From: an uncultured Bifidobacterium sp.
Lineage (GTDB): Bacteria > Bacteroidota > Bacteroidia > UKL13-3
Direction of reading: 5' to 3'
NCBI GenBank assembly: GCA_964442045.1
Contig: CAYTWI010000002.1
Coordinates: 26,509-90,508 of the forward strand
DNA length: 64,000 nt
Shown: positions 4,365 to 60,690 of the stretch, piece by piece
Numbering within the stretch: position 1 is the stretch's first letter
How the letters are laid out: the number at the start of each line of letters is the position of its first letter
Translations under genes and position numbers: made by a program
Notes under the pieces: model-generated
The model's input: the letters and a program-made list of their open reading frames with translations, nothing else
What the model was told of the DNA's origin: nothing
The model's database searches: none

Positions 4365-5891
4365 CTACTCCCATTCAATGGTAGCCGGTGGCTTACTGCT
4401 AATATCATATACTACGCGGTTAATGCCTTTTACTTCATTGATAATACGGTTTGATACATGGGCTAAAAACTCATGTGGCAAATGGCAAAAATCAGCAGTC
4501 ATTCCATCCACCGAAGTAACGGCTCTTAAGCAAACGGCATTTTCGTAAGTGCGCTCATCGCCCATAACGCCTACCGATTGTACAGGTAGGAATATAACAC
4601 CAGCCTGCCATACATTTTTGTATTGGTCTTTGCTTTTCAGTTCGCTTATAAATATATGGTCAGCCTCTTGTAATATAGCTACTTTTTCAGGAGTAATGTC
4701 GCCCAATATTCTAATAGCCAAACCAGGTCCGGGGAAAGGATGACGGTTCAATATAATATCGGCTATACCTAATTCCCTGCCTACTTTCCTTACTTCGTCT
4801 TTAAACAAAGTACGCAAAGGCTCTATTACTTTCAGGTTCATTTTTTCAGGTAATCCACCTACGTTGTGGTGCGACTTAATAGTAGCCGAAGGGCCTTTAA
4901 CGCTTACACTTTCTATTACATCGGGGTAAATAGTACCTTGTGCTAACCATCTTACACCTTCAATCTTCTTAGCTTCGTCATCAAATACTTCAATAAAAAC
5001 ACGGCCAATGGTTTTGCGTTTTTGCTCCGGGTCTGATATGCCTTTCAGTTCACTTAAAAATCTTTCACCAGCATCAACACCAATTACGTTTAAGCCCATG
5101 CCTTTGTAAGCTTCCAATACTTGTTCGTATTCGCCTTTGCGTAAAAGTCCGTTGTTTATAAATATACCTGTTAAATGATTGCCTATGGTATTTTTAAGCA
5201 ATACAGCCGCTACACTACTATCCACACCACCACTTAAACCCAATATTACTTTATCATCACCAATTTTTGCTTTCATTTCTGCTGTAATATTGGTAATAAA
5301 ATGGCTTGGTGTCCAGTCCTGATTTAGTTTGGCTACATGTTTTACAAAATTCTCCAACATCATTAAACCATCGGTACTGTGTGTAACTTCCGGATGGAAC
5401 TGGAATGCGTAAGTAGGCTCTCCTTCTATTTTAAAAGCCGCTACTTTCACCGCATCTGTGCTGGCTATTATTTTAAAATTATCAGGAACACTTTGTATGG
5501 TATCGCCATGGCTCATCCATACTTGTGTGTTTTTTTCAATGCCGGTAAATAATACATCATCCGACAAGTAACTTAAATTAGCACGGCCATATTCTCTTAT
5601 TTTTGATGGAACTACAAAACCGCCATTTTGCTGAGCCATTAACTGTGCACCGTAGCATAAACCCAATATAGGTAATTTACCGCGCCAGGCACTCATATCC
5701 ACGTTAGGCAATAAGCCATCGTTTACTGAATAAGGGCTTCCGCTCAATATAATGGCTTTGGTAGCCTCGTCAATAACTGGTAAATGGGTGCAAGGATGTA
5801 TTTCGGAATACACATTTAACTCGCGCAACCTACGAGCAATTAACTGTGTGTACTGACTCCCAAAATCGATTATTAATATTTTTTGTTCCAT
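4365..5891 (-). CDS. guaA: GMP synthase (glutamine-hydrolysing)
   Basis: [58 protein letters not shown]. Confidence 0.98.
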
Positions 5892-5969
5892 GATTTTGGG
5901 GCACGAAAGTGCGTTTTTTTTCTGATGTTTAAAAGGAGAAAGATGATTTTTTAAACAGCTAATAAAAAA

Positions 5970-7271
5970 TCAAAACAACACAAGCGTACTACCTATTTCA
6001 TCTCTCAGTTCTGGCGAAACATTGACTGCATCGGCAAAACTTTTCCATTCGCTCACTATTTCACTTATTTCTTTAATGGTTGCCAAAGCTTTTTTATTGT
6101 TTGTGGATTTACCAATAATCAGTAAATCTTCCTTCGTTATATCTTTTCTCTTGCCATTAATACTCAGTGCATGCTGGCTCACCCATTGGTGGTCCGGTTT
6201 ATAGGCATGGCAAATATCGTAAGCGGGAGCCAGTTCCCATTTACCTCCTTTTTTCAACCTGAACGAAAAATTTTTGGTATGGTCATCACAGTTTCGGGCA
6301 ACTACATTAAATACCATCCGCCTGAATAGTTGTTCTGCATCAGGGTAAGGCAACTTCAGTTCGCGCATGGTTTGAAACAATTGCTCATAACTAAAGCTTG
6401 TTACTTCATTGTAGTCAAAATGCTTTAGGCCGCAAAAAGTTTGTATGTGGTGTTTTATATCGCCACCTTCCCTGTCGAAACGTTTGGTCATAAAATGTGC
6501 CCGGCCATTTTCCTCCAACATTTTAGAGGGCATCATGTCTATACCACATGCCTTGGCCATATTGTAATAAGCCATCTCTACCCTGCCATAACCTTTACTA
6601 TTACCCAACTGCACATCGCTCACACCATCCAATTTTATTAACCAATGCTCAAATCCCTGAGGTGAATTGGTTTGTCCAGATTTTACTTCGCCCGTTTTTT
6701 CATTGTATGCAATAACGGCTTTAGGCCTTGCCCCACCTGCCGATGTGCCAATTTTTAATATTTCCATCACCGCATTTTCTTCCTCCTTTTGCAGGTTGGT
6801 TACAAAAGCTTCTTTTTTCCAAAGCATTTTTTGCGCAATGTCTACCAGGCTTTCTATTTCAATACCAAAGGTCCGCTTGTTTTCTTTGAATGTAGTAGGT
6901 TCAAATTCCAGCGCTCCCATTCCCCTTGTTCCAATAAAACAAAGCATCTCTACCGGATTCATGCTGTCTTGCGGACGGCCTTGCTGTGCCAGCCACATAT
7001 TAATTAACTGGCTTCCATATCTGTCAGGCAAAACATCAGCGAGTAAACCAGGAAGCCCTTTAAAAGTATCGTGGTCAGCATTTTTTCCTTTTCGTAATTC
7101 AGGAAACCTTATTTCTTTACGGGTATCGGTAATAGGCATTTTTAAGGGTGATAAATCCCAGCCCAACCTTTTAAACCGTGTATCATACTCAAACCCGGCA
7201 ATACCTGTAGCTTCGTTCCAGGCTACAGCACCAACCAATTCTCCCCATATTTTTACAAATGCAGTATTCAT
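5970..7271 (-). CDS. hipA: HipA-family Ser/Thr kinase toxin (type II TA)
   Basis: Coupling domain (VKIWGELVGAV, LPGLLADVLPDRYG), GTSAGGARPKA loop, DDHTKNFS catalytic motif, LAPAYD. Confidence 0.92.
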   Translation of the reverse strand: MNTAFVKIWGELVGAVAWNEATGIAGFEYDTRFKRLGWDLSPLKMPITDTRKEIRFPELRKGKNADHDTFKGLPGLLADVLPDRYGSQLINMWLAQQGRPQDSMNPVEMLCFIGTRGMGALEFEPTTFKENKRTFGIEIESLVDIAQKMLWKKEAFVTNLQKEEENAVMEILKIGTSAGGARPKAVIAYNEKTGEVKSGQTNSPQGFEHWLIKLDGVSDVQLGNSKGYGRVEMAYYNMAKACGIDMMPSKMLEENGRAHFMTKRFDREGGDIKHHIQTFCGLKHFDYNEVTSFSYEQLFQTMRELKLPYPDAEQLFRRMVFNVVARNCDDHTKNFSFRLKKGGKWELAPAYDICHAYKPDHQWVSQHALSINGKRKDITKEDLLIIGKSTNNKKALATIKEISEIVSEWKSFADAVNVSPELRDEIGSTLVLF

Positions 7272-21188: not shown

Positions 21189-22403
21189 CTATTTATACTG
21201 CTGTAATTTAGCTTCCATACTTAAAGTAGTATGAGGCACGGCACGTAAACGCTCTTTAGCAATTAACTTACCTGTTACTTTACAAATACCATATGTTTTG
21301 TTTTCAATACGTATCAAAGCGTTTTCTAAGTTTTCAATAAACTTACGCTGGCGGGCAGCTAATTGGCTTAAATGCTCTTTTTCGCTGCTTGATTGACCAT
21401 CTTCCAAAGTTTGGTAACTGCTATCAGTATCGTTACCGCCATTGGCGTTAGGATTTTGCATTTGCTCTAATAGGTTTGTCAACTCTTCTTTAGCCGAGTT
21501 CATTTTTTTTACAATGATTTCTTTAAACTCAGCTAAATCTGCATCGCTATAACGTTTTGCTTCAGTAGCCATTTCTAAATCTTTGTACTCAAAACGAGCA
21601 GGTGCCTGGTAAGGAGGTGCCTCAACAATATCGTTAGCCCTGTCTGTTTTAGGTTTAGACACTTTTGGTGTTTTTACCACTTTAGGCTTAGCTATTTCTG
21701 TGCTTATTGGTTTGTTAACCAATACAGATTTTTTCTCTACCTTTTTAGTTGTTACTACAGGTTTTTTAGCAATAACCGGTTTAGTTACCACTACTGCTTT
21801 TTTAGCTGGCTTGGCTACCACTTTTGATTTGGTAACTTTAACCGCCTTTTTAGCAACTACCACTTTTTTAGGAGCTGCTTTTTTGGCAATTGGCTTAACA
21901 GTTACTTTTTTAGCCACTTTTGCTACTGCTTTTTTAATTACCTTAGCTACTTTTTTAACTGGTTTAGCAATAACTTTGGCTTTGGCAACTTTAGTAGCTT
22001 TTTTAGCAACTACTACTTTATTAACTGCTTTTTTAGCAATTACTTTCTTAACTACTTTTTTAGGGGCTGCTTTTTTTACTGCTTTAGCTACCTTTTTAGG
22101 GGCAACTTTCTTAACCGCTTTTTTAGGAGCAACCTTTTTAACTGCTACTTTCTTTACGGCTTTTACTACTTTTTTAGGAGCCGCTTTTTTAGTTGCTACC
22201 TTTTTAACAGTTTTTACAACTTTTTTAGCAGCCTTTTTGATGGCTTTTTTTACCACTTTAACTACTTTTTTAGCAGTTTTTACTGGCTTTGCTTTCTTTG
22301 CAGGAACTACTTTCTTAACTGCAGCTTTTTTAGCTACTTGTTTTTTCACTGCCTTTTTAACTGCTTTTTTAGGAGCAGCTTTCTTCACAATTTTCTTGGC
22401 CAT
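21189..22403 (-). CDS. dksA: TraR/DksA-family protein with ~250-aa Lys/Ala/Val-rich histone-H1-like N-terminus
   Basis: C-terminal LAARQRKFIENLENALIRIENKTYGICKVTGKLIAKERLRAVPHTTLS; N-terminal repeats KKAAPKKVVK. Confidence 0.85.
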   Translation of the reverse strand: MAKKIVKKAAPKKAVKKAVKKQVAKKAAVKKVVPAKKAKPVKTAKKVVKVVKKAIKKAAKKVVKTVKKVATKKAAPKKVVKAVKKVAVKKVAPKKAVKKVAPKKVAKAVKKAAPKKVVKKVIAKKAVNKVVVAKKATKVAKAKVIAKPVKKVAKVIKKAVAKVAKKVTVKPIAKKAAPKKVVVAKKAVKVTKSKVVAKPAKKAVVVTKPVIAKKPVVTTKKVEKKSVLVNKPISTEIAKPKVVKTPKVSKPKTDRANDIVEAPPYQAPARFEYKDLEMATEAKRYSDADLAEFKEIIVKKMNSAKEELTNLLEQMQNPNANGGNDTDSSYQTLEDGQSSSEKEHLSQLAARQRKFIENLENALIRIENKTYGICKVTGKLIAKERLRAVPHTTLSMEAKLQQYK

Positions 22404-52165: not shown

Positions 52166-52241
<76 letters not shown>

Positions 52242-52242
<1 letters not shown>

Positions 52243-52389: not shown

Positions 52390-52406
52390 AATCCGATATC
52401 CTCCAC
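52390..52406 (+). mobile_element. att-like direct repeat of the tRNA-Ala 3' end
   Basis: AATCCGATATCCTCCAC identical to 52224-52240. Confidence 0.75.
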
Positions 52407-52615: not shown

Positions 52616-53524
52616 ATGAATAAGAAATTAAAATGCTATATCTCGACTGACTCTAGTAACGACTTATCAAAAGTTGAAATTTTACTACATAACTTAAATG
52701 TTGACACGAATAATTTCTATGATTTTTCAATAGGTTCGTCTTTTTCAGATTTGATTAAGCGAAAAATTAGAGAATCGGATTTTATACTAGCCTTAATCAC
52801 AAAAAATAATCAAAATGTTTTGTTTGAACTAGGAGTCGCAGAAGCGCTTGGCAAACCAATTTTTTTATTGGTAGATCAAGATTTAAAACTCCCCTTTTTT
52901 CTCGAAGGTAAAATGCATTATCAATTGGATTGGTCAAAAAACACACAACTGTTGGAACTCTCTCTGAAAAATTACATATTAGATATTAGTAATCCCTATA
53001 GACGTTATAAGAAAAAAACGCAAAAAGAAAAACCGAATCTTACAATCGATGAGACGAATAAGGCGCTTGTTAGTCTAAGACAATTTAGGAAAGGTGATTA
53101 TAAAGAATATGATTTAATTAATGTTATAATGGATGTTTTTAAAAAGATAAACGTTCAAGCTGTTTCGGAATTGGCCATAGGAGACAAATCAAGAGTAGAT
53201 ATCGCAATTACAAATGAAGGTTTATCAAGTTACTTTGGAAATCCTTTGCTAATAGAGGTTAAGTATGGAAGAATAGATAAGGAAACAATTGATAGAGCTC
53301 AACAACAACTTCAAAATTACATAAGTAAAACAGATGCTAATTTTGGAATTTTGCTCTATTTCGACAAAAATGATAGACGATTTAATTTAGACACTCCCAG
53401 ATTACCAAACATATTAATGTTTGACGTTGAAGACTTTGTTCAAGGTATTTCATCTGAGGGGTTTGAAAATTTCTTAATAAAAAAGAGAAATGAGTATGTA
53501 CATACTTTAAATAATCTAAGTTAG
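52616..53524 (+). CDS. NDT/TIR-like domain fused to PD-(D/E)xK restriction-endonuclease-like domain
   Basis: N-term IRESDFILALIT..NQNVLFELGVAEALGKPIFLL; C-term SRVDIAI...LLIEVKYG...AQQQLQNY...FGILLY. Confidence 0.75.
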   Translation: MNKKLKCYISTDSSNDLSKVEILLHNLNVDTNNFYDFSIGSSFSDLIKRKIRESDFILALITKNNQNVLFELGVAEALGKPIFLLVDQDLKLPFFLEGKMHYQLDWSKNTQLLELSLKNYILDISNPYRRYKKKTQKEKPNLTIDETNKALVSLRQFRKGDYKEYDLINVIMDVFKKINVQAVSELAIGDKSRVDIAITNEGLSSYFGNPLLIEVKYGRIDKETIDRAQQQLQNYISKTDANFGILLYFDKNDRRFNLDTPRLPNILMFDVEDFVQGISSEGFENFLIKKRNEYVHTLNNLS

Positions 53525-53525
53525 T

Positions 53526-54059
53526 ATGCCTAAATATAGCCAAACAAAAATAAGGCAGCTACTAAATCAATCTGATGCTGGAAATACTCATGTGAAAGGA
53601 AGAGTTTTTGAAGATTTAGTACTTTATTTATTTGAAAAATTCAATGGTGTTCGTTTAGCAGATAGAAATGTATTAGATGCAACAGGTTCTCAAGAAATAG
53701 ATTTAGCGCTTTGGAACAATAGGGTTATTGGGCCATTTGATATCCTTGACCCAATAGTAATTTGCGAATGTAAAAATGAAGTTCCCCCTTTAAGTAGCGC
53801 AAAAGTCCGTGAATTTGTACATAAGTTAAGGACAAGGGGGGCGAAATCAGGAATCCTTGTGTCATCTAGCGGTATTGCTGGTCAATTAAATGGTTACAGA
53901 TATGCAAACTCTGTAATAATGGATGCTTTGTCCATTGATGGTATTAAAATAATTGCTATCGATAGAGACGACATTTTATCATACGCGAACACTAATGATA
54001 TGTTTAATGATATTACAGAAAAATATTTGAAATTGACAATTAGAAGAACGATGGATTAA
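53526..54059 (+). CDS. Mrr-like (type IV-like) restriction endonuclease domain protein
   Basis: KGRVFEDLV, QEIDLAL, ICECKN, KVREF..KL, GILVSSSG. Confidence 0.8.
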   Translation: MPKYSQTKIRQLLNQSDAGNTHVKGRVFEDLVLYLFEKFNGVRLADRNVLDATGSQEIDLALWNNRVIGPFDILDPIVICECKNEVPPLSSAKVREFVHKLRTRGAKSGILVSSSGIAGQLNGYRYANSVIMDALSIDGIKIIAIDRDDILSYANTNDMFNDITEKYLKLTIRRTMD

Positions 54060-54089
54060 GCTATTTCATGACAAATTAAGAACAAAAAT

Positions 54090-56000
54090 ATGAGCACAAA
54101 ACAAATAGCACTTTTTGATGATAGATTTTTAGAATCATTTGTTGGAAAAGGAATTATCTCCGATTCTAAAATTGCAATCATTGAGCTAATAGCAAACTCA
54201 TGGGATGCTGCAGCAACAAAGGTTGAAATAAAGTGGCCATTAGAAGACGGGGACAATTTTTCAATTATTGACAATGGTCACGGAATGACCGAATCACAAT
54301 TTAATAAAAGATTTCGAACTTTAGCTTATGATAGAAACAAAGAGCAGGGTGGATATGCAGAGGTACCACAAGACCACAAATCACTAATTGGGAAAAGACC
54401 AACTTTCGGTAGAAATGGTAAAGGTAGATTATCTGGTTTTGCTTTCGGGGAATTTTTCCAAGTGAAAAGCTGGAGAGATACAAAGCAAATACATTATAAA
54501 GTATTTGCTGACAATACTAATATCTTAGCGTTTGAAAAATTAGGTGAAGAAAAAAAGGAACATCACGGAACAGAAATATTCGTTAATAATGCAATCAAAC
54601 CAAGTACTAGTTTTGATCAAATAAAAATTGAAATTGGAATGCGATTTATGACGGATCCTCATTTTGAAGTAATCGTTAACAATGAAAAAATTACATTTTT
54701 GGACATACCAGAAGAAAATATCAATAACATCGAAGTTGAAATTGATGGCATTGGAAAAATACCTATTACAGTAATTGATGTTAAAGGAACAGATAAGACA
54801 ACTCATCAACATGGTATTGCTTGGCATGTAAAAAACAGACTCGTTGGCGAATGTACTTGGAAAGGTAGTGGAAACGAACATTTGATTGATGGTAGAAGAA
54901 TTGCCGCAAAACGATATATTTTTATAGTAAAAGCAGACTGTTTAGAAAATGCTGTTTCTCCGGATTGGACAACATTTTTTCAAACAGACGAAAAATTCAA
55001 GAAGGTATTTCCTGCAGTTCAAGAAAAAATCAAAGATTATATTTTAGAACTTTACAAGGAAAATAGAGAAACAACATTTAAAGAAATTGAGGAAATTACC
55101 AAACCGATATTGAAAAACATTGGACTTGTTGGTCGAGAGAAATGGGAAACATTTATAACCAATGTTCAAGAAGAATGTCCTTCAATTACTCAAAATGATT
55201 TAGAAAAGGTTGCTAAACTTTTAGCTAATCTTGAACAAAGCGAATCAAAATATAACCTAATTGCCATATTGTCTAATTCAACATCAGAGGAATTAGAAAG
55301 TTTGAATACTGTTTTAAAAAAATGGAATATAAATTTAGCAAAAGTTGTACTTGACGAGGTAGAATATAGAATGAGACTAATTGAAAAATTACAAAGTAGA
55401 GTACTGACTAATTTAACAGACGAAGTTCATGATTTACAACCTTTATTTCACAGAGGTTTATGGATATTTGGTCCTGAGTATGAAACAATCGAATACACAT
55501 CAAATGTTGGTATGACAAAGGTTATACAAGATTTATTTGGAAAAGAAATAAAGGGTACGCGTATAAGACCTGACTTTGCAATCTTGAAAGATAGTTCGGT
55601 TGGTCTTTACAGTTTTCCAAAATATGATGACGAAGGAGGGGAAATAGGAATTGATAGGCTAACAATTGTTGAGCTTAAAAAGCCAGGAGTGCCGCTTGGA
55701 CTTGATGAGGTAAATCAATCCTGGAAATATGTTAGTGAATTATTAAATAAGGGATTAATTAAAAACTATTCTAAGGTGACATGTTTTGTTTTAGGTTCTG
55801 AGCTAGTGCCTTATGAAACGGAGAAGACAACGAAAATGAATGGCAATGTTATTATTCAGCCACTAGCCTACGATACCATTATGAGACGTGCAAAGAGCCG
55901 CCTTCTAAACTTGTTTGACAAGGTTAAGACTGCGCCATACTTAGAAGACACAAGAATTAAAGAATATTTGCGTGAAAAGGAACAGTCAGAATTATTTTAA
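54090..56000 (+). CDS. GHKL (HATPase_c/MORC-like) ATPase fused to C-terminal PD-(D/E)xK nuclease (Shedu/DUF4263-like)
   Basis: AIIELIANSWDA, DNGHGM, GRNGKGR, HGTEI; C-term LQPLFHRGLWIFGPEY, RPDF, IVELKKP, NQSWKY. Confidence 0.8.
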   Translation: MSTKQIALFDDRFLESFVGKGIISDSKIAIIELIANSWDAAATKVEIKWPLEDGDNFSIIDNGHGMTESQFNKRFRTLAYDRNKEQGGYAEVPQDHKSLIGKRPTFGRNGKGRLSGFAFGEFFQVKSWRDTKQIHYKVFADNTNILAFEKLGEEKKEHHGTEIFVNNAIKPSTSFDQIKIEIGMRFMTDPHFEVIVNNEKITFLDIPEENINNIEVEIDGIGKIPITVIDVKGTDKTTHQHGIAWHVKNRLVGECTWKGSGNEHLIDGRRIAAKRYIFIVKADCLENAVSPDWTTFFQTDEKFKKVFPAVQEKIKDYILELYKENRETTFKEIEEITKPILKNIGLVGREKWETFITNVQEECPSITQNDLEKVAKLLANLEQSESKYNLIAILSNSTSEELESLNTVLKKWNINLAKVVLDEVEYRMRLIEKLQSRVLTNLTDEVHDLQPLFHRGLWIFGPEYETIEYTSNVGMTKVIQDLFGKEIKGTRIRPDFAILKDSSVGLYSFPKYDDEGGEIGIDRLTIVELKKPGVPLGLDEVNQSWKYVSELLNKGLIKNYSKVTCFVLGSELVPYETEKTTKMNGNVIIQPLAYDTIMRRAKSRLLNLFDKVKTAPYLEDTRIKEYLREKEQSELF

Positions 56001-56097: not shown

Positions 56098-56129
56098 AAA
56101 AAGCCCTTGTAGTACTACAAGGGCTTTTT
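56098..56129. terminator. Perfect 32-bp palindrome / bidirectional terminator
   Basis: AAAAAGCCCTTGTAGTACTACAAGGGCTTTTT between convergent genes. Confidence 0.75.
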
Positions 56130-56156: not shown

Positions 56157-56858
56157 TTAAGGTGTAACAGGCGGTTCTTCCGAAGGACTTGGGTTCTCGT
56201 TATCAACCTCCAACAAACTAAAGTTAAAGTAACTGTTAAAAGCAGCTTCGTTACCTATGGTACGGGCAGCTATAAGCAGTACACAAGTGGTTAAATGCTC
56301 GGTTAATGCTTTTCGGTTTTGTTGCATTTCGGTTTGTGCCGTTTTTTTGCTGGATTTAGATGATACCTGTGTATCCCTTGCATCTACATAAGCGGTTTGT
56401 AATGTACCCAAAGTGCGCACAAAGTCGGTTGATAAGAGGGCTTTGTATTTGTCGGCAGTGGCACTGTACCTGAATAGCAATACTTTTATGCCCTCTACCG
56501 TAGCACCATAATACTCCCGGAGCCCCTGCGGGTAAAACTCGATGTAAATGGGTGTGTTTTTACCAAACTTAGATTTAATGGCACCTTCTTCGCGCGAAAT
56601 AAATTCTAAAATGGCATCGTAAGCATCTTGTCGGCTAAGGGTACCACCCTTTTGTATGGCACTGCTAATGGCCAGCGTACCAAAGGTGTTTACAAAGGCC
56701 TCGTGTAAATCAATCAGCAGCGTTTTATCGGCTGCGGGTAATAAGGAGTTTTGCATGCTGCTTAATCGGCTAATTAAGTCGGTAGCAAACAGGTTGAGTT
56801 CGTTTCGGCTAAAGTTGTTACTGCCGAATAAATTTCTGGTGAATCGTGCGTAATTCAT
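56157..56858 (-). CDS. Hypothetical protein (predicted helical)
   Basis: 233-aa ORF, visibly more GC-rich than neighbours; C-terminal YFNFSLL plus an acidic/Pro tail. Confidence 0.75.
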   Translation of the reverse strand: MNYARFTRNLFGSNNFSRNELNLFATDLISRLSSMQNSLLPAADKTLLIDLHEAFVNTFGTLAISSAIQKGGTLSRQDAYDAILEFISREEGAIKSKFGKNTPIYIEFYPQGLREYYGATVEGIKVLLFRYSATADKYKALLSTDFVRTLGTLQTAYVDARDTQVSSKSSKKTAQTEMQQNRKALTEHLTTCVLLIAARTIGNEAAFNSYFNFSLLEVDNENPSPSEEPPVTP

Positions 56859-56894
56859 ATCGGTAAGTTTTTTAGTAACTAAACGTAGGCTGAA

Positions 56895-57188
56895 TTATTT
56901 TTAGTATACCCTAAAAACAGAAAGTGCATGTAAAAATTATTTTACATACTCCCTCAAAAATGAGGGCGTATATAAAAACTATTTTTAGTACACCATAGAA
57001 AATGAGGGACTATGAAAAAACTATTTTACCTACTCCCTCAAAAACGAGGGAGTATATAAAAACTATTTTTAGTACACCCTAAAAATTAGAGGTGCATATA
57101 AAACATGTTTTGGGTACATGTTAGAAACTGAACATATAGTTAAAACATGTTTTTGGTATAGTCCCAAAATGCGGAATGCCGGTAAAAA
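56895..57188. repeat. Array of 7 x 42-bp imperfect palindromic units
   Basis: Units start at 56895, 56937, 56979, 57021, 57063, 57105, 57147; units 2 and 4 share 38/42 nt; stops in all six frames. Confidence 0.85.
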
Positions 57189-57252
57189 ATGGTAATTTAT
57201 AAGTATAGCCTTATTTACAAAGACCTTCAATTTATAGGGCCTGTATTGTATA

Positions 57253-57714
57253 CTATTTATGTAAAACACCGGAAATCATCTTTTTCAGGCTTTCAGGTTG
57301 TATTTTATCAAGGTGCTGTTTTATATAGCGTTCATCCTCTATAATATTTTCACTATATCCTAAAAATTGAGGACAGTTTTTTTGTACCGAAAGTCTTATA
57401 AAACGAATTTCTATATTGTCTTTTTCATTGCTTACAGCTTGCTCTATATTGGCTTTTCCTGTATTAAATGTTTTTAACTTAGCAATAGGACTTATGGTAT
57501 GTTTGGCCCAAATGGTTTGTAAGCCCCCCAAATAAGCCATTTCAATGTTATTTAGTTTTGATTTTGTCAAAACGCTTATCATGGTATTGCATACTTCTTT
57601 ATGGGTAACTGCCTGCTCATAATGAGTTCTTATATAGTTCAGATCAATATTTACCTGACTGCTTTTAAATGCGCATAATATATACAAGCTCAATATCAGT
57701 AAAAACCTCTTCAT
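57253..57714 (-). CDS. Secreted hypothetical protein downstream of crtB
   Basis: Signal peptide, AYLGGLQTIWAKH..SPIAKL..F..GK, EIRFIRLSVQ; overlaps the crtB stop by 4 bp. Confidence 0.7.
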   Translation of the reverse strand: MKRFLLILSLYILCAFKSSQVNIDLNYIRTHYEQAVTHKEVCNTMISVLTKSKLNNIEMAYLGGLQTIWAKHTISPIAKLKTFNTGKANIEQAVSNEKDNIEIRFIRLSVQKNCPQFLGYSENIIEDERYIKQHLDKIQPESLKKMISGVLHK

Positions 57715-58547
57715 AATACGGCAAACTTATATCTAATATAGCTTAAAACCATAACCGAAAACTTTTGAGTATTGGGTATGCGTATTCGGTTTTGCAACAC
57801 ACGCTCCAGCGGAGTTGATTTTATTTTTTTGAACAGGAACCTGTAGTATGTATATGCCAGGTAAACACCAAACTTTGAGGAGCTTGGCAGTGTTTGAATA
57901 CCTACTAAAGCTTCTTTAAATTCATTGTCTATTTCATTTTCTATATTGCACTTGGCTGTATTATCAAGCTGGCGGAAATCAATATTGGGGAAATAGGTAC
58001 GTCCTAGTGTTTGATAATCGTCTTTTAAATCGCGTAAGAAATTTACTTTTTGAAAAGCCGAACCTAATTTCATAGCATAAGGCTTTAGTCTTTCGTACTC
58101 AGCTTTGTTTCCATCGGTAAAAACCTGCAAACACATTAAACCAACTACCTCTGCCGAACCATATATGTATTCATTGTACAATTCGGAGGTATAATCAATT
58201 TTATTTAAGTCCATTTCCATACTATGCAGAAACTGGTCTATCAATGTTGTATCAATATTGTATTTATGCACAGTTTCCTGAAAGGCGTGTAAAATAGGGT
58301 TTAGCGATATGCGTTCTGTTAAGGCTTGGTTTGTTTCTGTTTTAAACCTACTTAACAAGGTAGCTTTATCGTAACCGTGGAAACTATCCACTATTTCATC
58401 GGCCAGTCTTACATAGCCGTAAATAGCATATATAGCAGGCCTTATGGTATTATTTAATGCCAATATACCCAGAGAAAAACTGGTACTGTACTTTTTTGTT
58501 GTTGCTTTGCTTATTTCGTAAGCGAGTTCATCAAATAACTTTTTCAT
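57711..58547 (-). CDS. crtB: Phytoene synthase
   Basis: YSTSFSLG, YGYVRLADEIVDS, YIYGSAEVVGLM, LGSAFQKVNFLRD. Confidence 0.95.
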   Translation of the reverse strand: MKKLFDELAYEISKATTKKYSTSFSLGILALNNTIRPAIYAIYGYVRLADEIVDSFHGYDKATLLSRFKTETNQALTERISLNPILHAFQETVHKYNIDTTLIDQFLHSMEMDLNKIDYTSELYNEYIYGSAEVVGLMCLQVFTDGNKAEYERLKPYAMKLGSAFQKVNFLRDLKDDYQTLGRTYFPNIDFRQLDNTAKCNIENEIDNEFKEALVGIQTLPSSSKFGVYLAYTYYRFLFKKIKSTPLERVLQNRIRIPNTQKFSVMVLSYIRYKFAVL

Positions 58548-58558
58548 AGATATCAGAT

Positions 58559-60025
58559 TTAATTTTTATTTACTTCATTGGCCACTATTTTACCCGAGAT
58601 GATGGATGGAGGTACACCCGGCCCGGGTACAGTTAACTGACCTGTATAAAAAATATTGTTAATTTTTTGGTTCTTTATTTTGGGTTTCAATACGGCTGTT
58701 TGAGCAAGTGTATTGGCAAGTCCGTATGCATTGCCTCCGTATGCATTATAATCCTTCATAAAATCGGAAACGCAATAGCTTCGTTTGTATTCAATTTTCG
58801 ATGATAGATTTTCTGTTTTGGTTAATTGCTCTAAACGCTCAAGCATTTGTTTTAAATACTTTTCACGTATTTCTTCTTCATCATTAATTCCAATAGCCAA
58901 AGGCATCAGCAAAAAAATATTTTCGCCATAAGCCGGAGCAACATGGGGGTCTGTTTTGGAAGGGCAACAACTATAAAACAATGGATTTTCGGGCCATTCC
59001 TTATTGGTATAAATAGCGTCAATATGTTCGTCTAAATTGTTTTCAAAAAACAGGGTATGGTGTTTCAGATTTGGTATTTTTTCTTTAAAACCTAAGTAGT
59101 ATATAAGACACGATGGGGCAAAGGTTTTCTTTTTCCAATATGCTTCATTATAATTCCTGTATTGGTCTTCCAGTAAACTTTCTGTGTGGTGATAATCAGA
59201 TGAAGCAATTATTGCATCAAAATATTGCTGTTCGCCATTAATTTGAAGGGAGCTCACTTGATTGTTCTCTACATTTATTTTCTCAACTGTTTTATTAAAA
59301 TGGAAAGTAGCACCTTGCTGCTCTGCCACTTTTTGCATAGCCAATACCAACTGATAAAATCCACCCATGGGGTAATGAGTACCCAATGCATAGCCGCCAT
59401 AATTCATTAAACTGTATAAAGCAGGAATATTTTTGGGTGAAGCACCCAGAAAAATAACAGGAAACTCCATGAGTGTACGCAATTTTTCATCGGAAAAATA
59501 CTTTGCCACATAGCTCCTGAAATTGCTTAGTAAGTCTAATTGCAAAGCGTTTTTTAAAGTTTTAAGCGAAGCAAATTCCATCCAGCTATGGCAAGGTTTA
59601 TTCACAAAATCGCCCATCCCTACTTTGTATTTAAACTGAGCCGCCTGCATAAATTCGTCTAATTTATTTCCTGCCCCGGTTTCTATACTTTCAAAAAGTT
59701 GTTTTAACTCCTGGTAAGACTCCGGTATAGCCAGCTTCTCCTCTTTAAATATCATTTCAAACTGTGGGTTCAGCGAAACCAGTTCAAAAAAATCGGAAGT
59801 TTTATAACCAAAATCCGAAAAGAAAGCTTCCATTACGTCAGGCATCCAATACCAGCTTGGCCCCATATCAAACACATAACCTTGTTCAGTAACAAACTGC
59901 CTGGCCCTGCCTCCTGGTTGCGGGTGCTTTTCAAACACGTGCACTTCATGACCCTGTCTGGCTGCATAGGCAGCTGCAGACAATCCTGAAAATCCTGAAC
60001 CTATTATGGCTATTTTCTTTTTCAA
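58559..60025 (-). CDS. crtI: Phytoene desaturase
   Basis: IIGSGFSGLSAA FAD motif, FDMGPSWYWMP, GQLTVPGPGVPPSIISG; TTG start. Confidence 0.93.
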   Translation of the reverse strand: MKKKIAIIGSGFSGLSAAAYAARQGHEVHVFEKHPQPGGRARQFVTEQGYVFDMGPSWYWMPDVMEAFFSDFGYKTSDFFELVSLNPQFEMIFKEEKLAIPESYQELKQLFESIETGAGNKLDEFMQAAQFKYKVGMGDFVNKPCHSWMEFASLKTLKNALQLDLLSNFRSYVAKYFSDEKLRTLMEFPVIFLGASPKNIPALYSLMNYGGYALGTHYPMGGFYQLVLAMQKVAEQQGATFHFNKTVEKINVENNQVSSLQINGEQQYFDAIIASSDYHHTESLLEDQYRNYNEAYWKKKTFAPSCLIYYLGFKEKIPNLKHHTLFFENNLDEHIDAIYTNKEWPENPLFYSCCPSKTDPHVAPAYGENIFLLMPLAIGINDEEEIREKYLKQMLERLEQLTKTENLSSKIEYKRSYCVSDFMKDYNAYGGNAYGLANTLAQTAVLKPKIKNQKINNIFYTGQLTVPGPGVPPSIISGKIVANEVNKN

Positions 60026-60690
60026 AGTTTTTCTTTTTTACTTTTAATTGCTTCTTCTAACAAATTTTCGGGTTCTATGTTTTGCGAATAAAGCGGATTA
60101 TGAAAATCGTTTAGTTTATTTAATAAGCGTATCAGTTCCATCTTTTCCCGATGGTTTAAATTGCCGGTTACAATATGGGTGGCTTGCCTTATTTTATCCA
60201 TTTGCTGCTCCAATGTCTGTAAACCTTTGGGAGTTATACTAATTACCTTACTGCGTTTATCTGTTTCCGAATCTTGCTGTGCTACCCAGCCTTGTGCAAT
60301 AAGCCTGTTGATAATTTGCATGCCAACGGGTTTATCCTGTATATTCTTTTTAATTAACTCCATTTTGGTCATGCTGCCAAAAGCCTTTAGGTTAATCAGG
60401 TATATAAAATCTTCCTGGGTAGTGAAATCGGAACCATGAATAGCTGATTTTGAATAATTTTTAGCATAGCGATTCATGTGCAGAATAAGGGTATTGATAA
60501 CACTTTCAGGGCTTCGGCCATGCTCCTTACCATCCCAATGAGGCTCCGGTGCAAAAGTTTCTGTTGCAAATGTTGTTAGCATCCACTGCTTAAAGCCATT
60601 AACATCAGCGGAGTATTGCTTTGATTTGGAATTAGTTTGCTCAAATTCCTTTATCAAATCAATGGTATCTTTTATTAATAGATTATTCAT
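60022..60690 (-). CDS. MarR-family transcriptional regulator
   Basis: MTKMELIKK...GMQIINRLIAQGWV....ETDKRSKVISITPKG winged HTH; overlaps the crtI start. Confidence 0.85.
   Translation of the reverse strand: MNNLLIKDTIDLIKEFEQTNSKSKQYSADVNGFKQWMLTTFATETFAPEPHWDGKEHGRSPESVINTLILHMNRYAKNYSKSAIHGSDFTTQEDFIYLINLKAFGSMTKMELIKKNIQDKPVGMQIINRLIAQGWVAQQDSETDKRSKVISITPKGLQTLEQQMDKIRQATHIVTGNLNHREKMELIRLLNKLNDFHNPLYSQNIEPENLLEEAIKSKKEKL

Follow-up and report, generated by a model that had tools for sequence, protein, structure and literature searches.

Several described systems pair short tandem repeats with a neighbouring gene or promoter. In the type III toxin-antitoxin systems (ToxIN, CptIN, TenpIN, and AbiQ/antiQ), direct repeats of 34–45 nt immediately precede a gene of about 170–230 aa and share its orientation; these systems are found in defence islands, and their repeats and proteins have diversified as cognate pairs. 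Iterons and plasmid centromeres of the sopC type are non-coding tandem repeats with a period of whole helical turns and a dyad in each unit, located beside one or more partner genes; the F-plasmid centromere sopC, which SopB binds, is made of 43-bp repeats in 12 tandem copies that each contain a short inverted repeat. Phased operator and activator arrays, including the pho boxes, the ARG boxes at 21-bp spacing, and the OmpR sites, present repeated sites on one helical face, upstream of or overlapping the −35/−33 element, and are defined by a whole-helical-turn spacing that abuts the core promoter. The REP/BIME elements of enterobacteria are tandem, intergenic, palindromic units of alternating A and B type, and CRISPR arrays are built of regularly spaced, partly palindromic repeats and occur in defence neighbourhoods. 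AbiF, a helical, toxin-like protein of the Abi_2 family, is accompanied by an upstream non-coding RNA, RCd22, with two tandem abiF motifs (bioRxiv 10.1101/2025.04.15.648962).

The locus described here lies within a 64-kb stretch of DNA, hereafter the window, and consists of a strictly periodic non-coding array and an orphan gene. The order of the module is a short 5′ flank, an array with a 42-bp period, a core promoter, a gene for an all-alpha protein, and a terminator. In the window, the array is flanked by two minus-strand genes, a 153-aa ORF upstream (57253–57714) and a 233-aa ORF downstream, and the parts are, in the direction of transcription of the latter:

57190–57252, no strand assigned: short 5′ flank that separates the array from the stop of the 153-aa gene (57253), read from the sequence.
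56896–57189, non-coding: tandem array of seven 42-bp units, from Tandem Repeats Finder (TRF), an ungapped repeat finder, and an identity matrix.
Unit starts: U1 56896, U2 56938, U3 56980, U4 57022, U5 57064, U6 57106, U7 57148.
56880–56887, minus strand: putative −7 promoter box TACGTTTA (TAnnTTTa), read from the sequence as a consensus match only.
56157–56858, minus strand: ORF of the partner gene, encoding the 233-aa protein.
56098–56129, no strand assigned: perfect palindrome of 16+16 bp, flanked on each side by A/T runs, from a terminator scan and an inverted repeat search.

The seven units of the array follow one another head-to-tail in exact 42-bp steps, without indels. This regularity had been the first claim of the original prediction and was confirmed by both TRF and the ungapped repeat finder. 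TRF called the region 56896–57103 with a period of 42 bp (5.0 copies, 72% matches) and with a period of 84 bp (1.9 copies, 90% matches). U2 and U4 are nearly identical, as had been noted, although at 39 of 42 positions in the identity matrix rather than the 38 originally counted. U1, U3, and U5 form the second subtype that had been proposed, with 29–33 of 42 positions shared, and the resulting A/B alternation gives the array its 84-bp super-period. U6 and U7, previously described as degenerate, indeed share only 20–27 of 42 positions with the other units, and represent an ancestral-looking third unit type.

The predicted self-complementarity of the units was borne out. U2 and U4 form near-perfect hairpins, TACTCCCTC-N6-GAGGGAGTA, and the single-strand fold of the whole array has a z-score of −7.3 against 100 dinucleotide shuffles. 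At least three distinct palindromes stand side by side within the array. Each unit holds two dyads 21 bp apart, in keeping with the dyad about every 21 bp that had been read earlier, and the same arrangement is seen in two homologous arrays (L023 and L026). The lag-42 autocorrelation at the array is the strongest periodicity of the entire 64-kb window, and the unit motifs are confined to the array (chance expectation, 0.00–0.02 matches), with the exception of one weak half-unit at 57345–57368. This lone half-unit-like sequence (TATTTTCACTATATCCTAAAAATT, 83% identical) falls within the upstream 153-aa ORF, and may be a chance match or a relic of a longer array. A scan of 56800–57300 against Rfam found no family near its gathering score. 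Stops occur in all six frames of the window array, 4–11 in each, as had been stated, and the longest open stretch is 39 codons. Since all six frames are closed by stops, the reading of the window array as a decayed coding repeat was rejected. No intact ORF of 14-aa repeats was found in the homologues, the observation that the original prediction had named as pointing to such a decayed coding repeat.

The original prediction had also spoken of a downstream gene. This gene exists, but it is encoded on the minus strand (56157–56858), and U1 is therefore the promoter-proximal unit, abutting the promoter, with U6 and U7 at the promoter-distal end. The gap between the array and the ATG is 37 bp. The G+C content of the gene is 0.42–0.45, compared with about 0.31–0.35 in the neighbouring DNA. 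Its 233-aa product matched no family in Pfam, NCBIfam, PHROGs, PADLOC, or the PDB sequences and profiles. An AF2 model (pLDDT 78) is entirely helical, with one helix of 56 residues, and the C-terminal tail is Pro-rich and disordered. Foldseek searches of the PDB and BFVD with this protein returned generic helical bundles only, all at E > 0.1, and the model shows no recognisable DNA-binding motif. Downstream of the gene, the palindrome at 56098–56129 looks like a bidirectional intrinsic terminator that would be common to the 233-aa gene and a convergent gene for a 636-aa protein. It is homologous to the region behind the stop codon in the locus of the closest homologue (L006), and marks the 3′ edge of the module. 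No terminator-like site was found between array and gene, either in a scan of the window or by reading of the homologous loci.

The 233-aa protein belongs to a sizeable family. An exhaustive profile search yielded 693 homologous clusters at E ≤ 1e-3, counted at 50% identity in the library searched. Members fall into two size classes, of about 230 aa and about 315 aa, and a C-terminal CarboxypepD_reg beta-sandwich was present in three of the ten longer members scanned. The core of the protein has a near-neutral pI (median 6.25). Members come from Bacteroidota, plus one from Verrucomicrobiota and one from Ignavibacteria, and are without exception named "hypothetical" in their sources.

The array was found to accompany the gene throughout most of this family. 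Nearly every homologous locus with enough upstream DNA has an array with a period of 42 or 83/84 bp beside the gene, and the strongest autocorrelation of the window and of loci L001–L011, L013/14, L016–19, L021–27, and L031 is at a lag of 42 or 83/84. The array is kept beside the gene down to about 25–34% protein identity (L011, L013, and L031), and where it is too degenerate for TRF (L004, L013, and L031), lag 42 is still the top autocorrelation. Four paralogous array-plus-gene loci are present in one Daejeonella genome and two in another Bacteroidota genome, and many more lie on metagenome contigs. In more than 20 homologous loci the array, of 4–9 units, is located upstream of the gene, and its orientation is conserved wherever it could be judged. 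One array, that of L009, appeared in blastn to be inverted relative to the gene; this is probably an artefact of unit palindromy, and the orientation of the asymmetric linker motif GTACTAAAAA is unchanged. In the GC-rich Verrucomicrobiota locus (L015), an array of 42-bp units (5.2 copies, with an 83/84-bp super-period) lies at 4829–5044, 118 bp downstream of the gene and between convergent genes, and is co-oriented with the gene. A clear array is absent from L029. The Ignavibacteria locus (L032, 2737–2900) has no 42-bp array, and has 14-bp and 8-bp repeats instead. The upstream repeats there comprise a 14-bp sequence, GCAATTAGCAATGA, in about six copies, an 8-bp sequence, TTTTCCAA, and a further repeat of AACCTGT type; a repeat length of 14 is one third of 42.

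The sequences of the units differ between loci, even between paralogues of one genome, and what recurs is a loose grammar, in which a TTCC...GGAA dyad precedes a linker that contains GGCAT or GTAC and an A-run. The 84-bp super-period with its A/B alternation is found again in many homologous arrays. Across arrays, GGAA(T) is followed by the next TTCC at a distance of 30–34 nt, the remainder is 8–12 nt, and the two always sum to 42. Selection therefore appears to act on the repeat period itself.

Array and gene also share their limits and their history. In blastn, homology between paralogues begins about 130–160 bp before the array, on its 5′ side, and ends about 60 bp behind the stop codon; it thus spans the array through the gene, indicating that both are inherited together, as one unit. 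The module measures about 1.1–1.5 kb, and is often present in multiple copies. Paralogous modules are 70–88% identical in nucleotide sequence and, judged by this divergence, are old, rather than recent transposition copies. The outermost unit is conserved among paralogues, while the inner units are homogenised within arrays and different between arrays, which indicates frequent unequal exchange. U6 and U7 of the window match the unit type of the L006 array, and the homology of the window to L006 starts at 57158, inside U7. In four DNA runs from relatives of the window organism (X1–X4), a second copy, 94% identical, was detected, in which the 3′ half of the gene (56269–56399) is joined via GTATA to array units (56951/57035). 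These junctions skip 551 or 635 bp, a difference of 84 bp, and in the same runs array words have 3–5 times the depth of gene words. The junction could represent a truncated paralogue or a recombination at the array.

Whether the array acts as DNA or as RNA was approached through the promoter, the transcript, and the folding of the two strands. The −7 promoter consensus of Bacteroidetes, known from the promoters of Bacteroides and Flavobacterium, is TAnnTTTG. A perfect TAnnTTTG box lies between array and ATG, on the sense strand, in 12 of 18 loci, compared with an expectation of about 8% per locus, and in 10 of these 12 it is located at −25 to −32. The window box, TACGTTTA, at −29 to −22 from the ATG and about 8 bp from U1, matches the position of these 10 boxes; elsewhere, the distance from the end of the array to the perfect box is 40–70 bp. 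In the 150 nt upstream of the array, by comparison, TAnnTTTG was found in only 1 of 16 loci, so that no promoter box beyond chance precedes the arrays; both strands of 57190–57252 in the window are free of it, and boxes inside an array occur only in L002, which has two.

A transcript was recovered for one homologue. The lake metatranscriptome X24 contains one 749-nt contig, 100% identical to positions 276–1024 of L022, in which the gene occupies 289–1011. This contig runs from −13 before the ATG to +13 past the stop and omits the array, and the box of this locus, TAATTTTA, lies at −28 to −21. Array words of L022 are absent from X24, where the word share of 0.64 equals that of the contig alone. 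Since the flanks are missing, the signal was attributed to RNA and not to contaminating DNA. This transcript is one assembled contig of low depth from one homologue, and a standard library would lose processed RNAs of about 42 nt.

Folding gave little indication of a conserved RNA. Stem mismatches show no strand asymmetry (27 G:T versus 24 A:C), and the sense and antisense folding energies give no consistent signal across arrays. Only about one array in three has a strong local fold z-score, the score is near 0 in 9 of 18, and the palindromy is therefore a property of the window array rather than of the family. The absent strand asymmetry and the unconserved hairpin stability together make the array unlike a conserved structured RNA. 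Intrinsic curvature, one of the three roles suggested by the original prediction, was not supported either. In a wedge model with approximate parameters, the predicted path of the window array is straight, with an end-to-end/contour ratio of 0.97 (shuffles, 0.91; phased A-tract control, 0.36), and no consistent curvature is predicted across arrays. Taken together, the promoter, transcript, strand, hairpin, and curvature results favour an element that acts at the DNA level, upstream of the promoter, over a leader or an abundant repeat RNA.

The window module is placed between a tRNA and a carotenoid operon. The carotenoid cluster (57253–60690, minus strand) includes a 222-aa MarR-type regulator, a phytoene synthase (Pfam SQS_PSY), and a 488-aa ORF that was read from its sequence as a putative phytoene desaturase; the 153-aa ORF is the last of this operon, has a signal-peptide-like N-terminus, and matched no family. 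On the other side, a plus-strand islet of three genes (52616–56000, G+C about 0.30) is convergent to the 233-aa gene and constitutes a candidate defence system. It encodes a 302-aa TIR/nucleoside-deoxyribosyltransferase-like protein, a 177-aa Mrr_cat nuclease, and the 636-aa protein, a GHKL ATPase related to restriction enzymes of the BbrUII/HgiDII family. The 3′ end of a tRNA-Ala(GGC) gene (52166–52242), a 17-bp sequence, AATCCGATATCCTCCAC, at 52224–52240, is repeated exactly at 52390–52406, 166 bp downstream. This repeat resembles an att scar left long ago by an integrative element, and the islet follows it directly. A search for tRNA-derived or direct repeats as integration scars flanking the module found this 17-bp scar only, which is unrelated to the module edges. 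Elsewhere in the window, a minus-strand gene (21189–22403) for a 404-aa protein has overlapping tandem-repeat calls, with periods of 27, 36, and 51, at 21988–22371, and these are coding; they correspond to a Lys/Ala/Val-rich, histone-H1-like N-terminal region, and the C-terminal region contains a single Cys-containing stretch that is reminiscent of a zinc-finger motif.

In roughly 10 of 16 contexts, modules lie beside restriction-modification or defence genes. The window module has BbrUII-like, Mrr, and TIR-like neighbours. Elsewhere the neighbours are GmrSD with FRG (L006), LRR-Roc-COR (L007), a caspase with a resolvase (L009), an AAA_15/AAA_23 ATPase that adjoins the array (L015), Mrr (L029), an MmeI-like enzyme (L002), D12 adenine methyltransferases (L025 and L027), and a C5 cytosine methyltransferase (L026). 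Other loci have polysaccharide or ordinary metabolic surroundings. Modules often mark the transition from variable defence genes to housekeeping genes. Searches by tblastn with two family members found nothing in 72,556 plasmids and 50,697 phages, and the family was absent from an IMG/VR search. Directly downstream of one Daejeonella module (L003, 4879–6783) lies the gene for a 634-aa protein with collagen, YadA_head, and Peptidase_S74 (endosialidase chaperone) domains, which resembles a phage tail fibre and has its own coding repeat, also of 42-bp period, at 5925–6042.

The likeness to type III toxin-antitoxin systems extends to repeat length, position, orientation, gene size, defence setting, and the diversified pairs of repeat and protein. 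The partner protein, however, is all-alpha and shows no alpha/beta fold of the ToxN, AbiQ, CptN, or TenpN type and no match to these families, and the promoter box is found between array and gene instead of upstream, with no intervening terminator. Membership in this class was ruled out by the all-alpha model, the lack of a ToxN-like match, the promoter position, and the RNA contig. With iterons and sopC, the array shares its non-coding nature, whole-turn period, dyads, and adjoining partner gene, and by analogy it may share their role as protein-loading DNA; in contrast to those systems, no Rep, ParA/SopA, or ParB/SopB is encoded in or beside the module, the partner has no such domain, the locus is chromosomal, the family is missing from the plasmid collection, and unit sequences vary within an array. 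AbiF-RCd22 is similar in its helical toxin-like protein, its upstream repeated non-coding element, and its association with defence, but it has two motifs, whereas the arrays described here have 4–9 units of exactly 42 bp. None of 54 family members matched Abi_2 (PF07751), and the abiF motif of Rfam was not found in 56800–57300.

The remaining systems differ mainly in scale and in layout. Module arrays do show the whole-helical-turn spacing abutting the core promoter that defines phased operator arrays, and some have the 21-bp dyad spacing, but they are far longer (170–350 bp), have a period of 42/84 bp, and are not conserved between paralogues. The alternating palindromic units of the window are reminiscent of BIMEs, which, however, are dispersed at hundreds of sites per genome, whereas the window units stand beside one gene family and keep a strict 42-bp spacing. 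CRISPR arrays share the regular spacing, partial palindromy, and defence neighbourhoods, yet here the variable part is constant or A/B-alternating within an array. That the array is not a CRISPR had been concluded previously, and this conclusion stands, as the whole 42-bp unit repeats and unique spacers are absent; no cas genes were found among the neighbouring genes examined by Pfam scan or by precomputed Pfam labels in the window and the homologous loci. Type III toxin-antitoxin systems, CRISPR, iterons and centromeres, REP/BIME, and AbiF each fail at least one defining feature tested. No description of the array-gene pairing was found in Rfam, Pfam, NCBIfam, PADLOC, or full-text literature searches. 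The module resembles known repeat-plus-protein systems in its anatomy but fits none of them, and looks like a regulatory or defence module of a kind that has not been described.

The explanation that we favour, tentatively, is that a helically phased, protein-binding DNA array controls the adjacent promoter. In this model, the array, which is the non-coding half of a conserved two-part module, would act as double-stranded DNA. Protein-binding units would be stacked at intervals of exactly four helical turns (42 bp, with 10.5 bp to the turn), and the stack would abut the −33/−7 promoter, such that a protein binding cooperatively along one face of the helix could set transcription of the gene. 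Tight silencing with conditional release would be the more likely mode of regulation, and the binder might be the product of the module itself or a host factor. A phased multi-operator or protein-loading array was one of the three roles put forward by the original prediction, and it is the best supported of them, through the conservation of the period and the position of the promoter box; we infer the protein binding itself, as well as the direction of regulation and a role in restriction or defence islets. Several observations fit this model poorly. The differences in unit sequence between paralogues of one genome are awkward for a single host factor, and the three or more palindromes of the window array are awkward for one sequence-specific dimer. 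The L015 array lies downstream of its gene, and both L029 and the Ignavibacteria locus are without a clear 42-bp array. The partner protein, with its near-neutral core, offers no recognisable DNA-binding motif.

A broader proposal, which we consider rather unlikely, is that array and protein constitute an unrecognised two-component defence or addiction system of Bacteroidota and their relatives. The element, as an RNA or as a DNA scaffold, would restrain an orphan all-alpha effector until phage infection or the loss of the adjoining restriction-modification genes, making the module a functional analogue of type III toxin-antitoxin systems with an unrelated fold and a different transcriptional layout. 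The RNA form of such a system, in which the repeat RNA is transcribed, perhaps cut into 42-nt units, and neutralises or guides the all-alpha protein in abortive infection or addiction, we regard as unlikely on the present evidence. It would account for the 4–9 direct 42-nt repeats that closely precede a gene of about 230 aa and run in its direction, for the multi-copy modules with diversified arrays in one genome, for the restriction-modification and defence neighbours in roughly 10 of 16 contexts, and for the L015 array, which has been relocated downstream yet is still co-oriented. The gene-sense strand of the window also folds better than the opposite strand in U1, U2, U4, and U5, and there is a precedent for an all-alpha toxin that is neutralised by a tandem-motif RNA (bioRxiv 10.1101/2025.04.15.648962). 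The protein, however, has no ToxN/AbiQ fold and no HEPN/Abi_2 signature, and its pI is neutral. The promoter box stands between array and gene, with none upstream of the arrays beyond chance, and no terminator separates the array from the gene. The only metatranscriptome to contain the mRNA lacks array words, and the arrays show no G:U strand bias, no conserved hairpins, and no Rfam match.

An array that serves recombination, maintenance, or mobility, akin to iterons, a sopC-type centromere, or an att-like cluster, by which modules or defence cassettes duplicate, move, and exchange, appears improbable. Multi-copy modules in different contexts, at the boundaries between variable defence genes and housekeeping genes, would be expected of such an element, as would the second copy with its array units joined to the 3′ half of the gene across skips of 551/635 bp, the signs of unequal exchange in the homogenised inner and conserved outermost units, and an anatomy like that of F-plasmid sopC. 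Against this, no recombinase, transposase, Rep, or ParA/ParB is encoded in the module or consistently nearby, with a resolvase only at L009. The plasmid, phage, and IMG/VR searches found no member of the family, its paralogues are old (70–88% nucleotide identity), and the surroundings of the window module showed neither terminal repeats nor target duplications. Distinctly improbable is a satellite without function, or a decayed coding repeat, that unequal crossing-over maintains beside the gene. The concerted evolution of the units is clear, copy number and unit types vary, and two homologues are without a 42-bp array, all of which a satellite could explain; yet the array is retained to about 25–30% protein identity and in a second phylum, the period is held at 42 despite compensating internal length changes, all six frames are closed in the window, and the units of different loci diverge too far in sequence to code for one common peptide. 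Finally, a multi-hairpin 5′ leader RNA, the third role suggested by the original prediction, might stabilise or attenuate the mRNA. Such a leader would suit the upstream, co-oriented position and the strong hairpin potential of the window array, but it is highly improbable, because in 12 of 18 loci the −7 box follows the array and precedes the start codon, and because the L022 mRNA contig, which starts at −13, contains no array; it is further disfavoured by the downstream L015 array and the unconserved hairpins.

If the coupling of array and gene is functional, the module would represent a new kind of genetic module, in which a strictly 42-bp-periodic array is tied to an orphan protein family. 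It occurs widely in environmental Bacteroidota, extends to one further phylum at least, and is concentrated next to genes of restriction-modification and other defence. One possible outcome is that a long DNA scaffold in helical phase controls the promoter in an unusual way, in a phylum about whose transcriptional regulation little is known; the other is a new repeat-plus-protein immunity or addiction system. Either outcome would provide a handle for function discovery on a sizeable family of "hypothetical proteins", and the module offers a testable case of selection on the period of a repeat rather than on its sequence.
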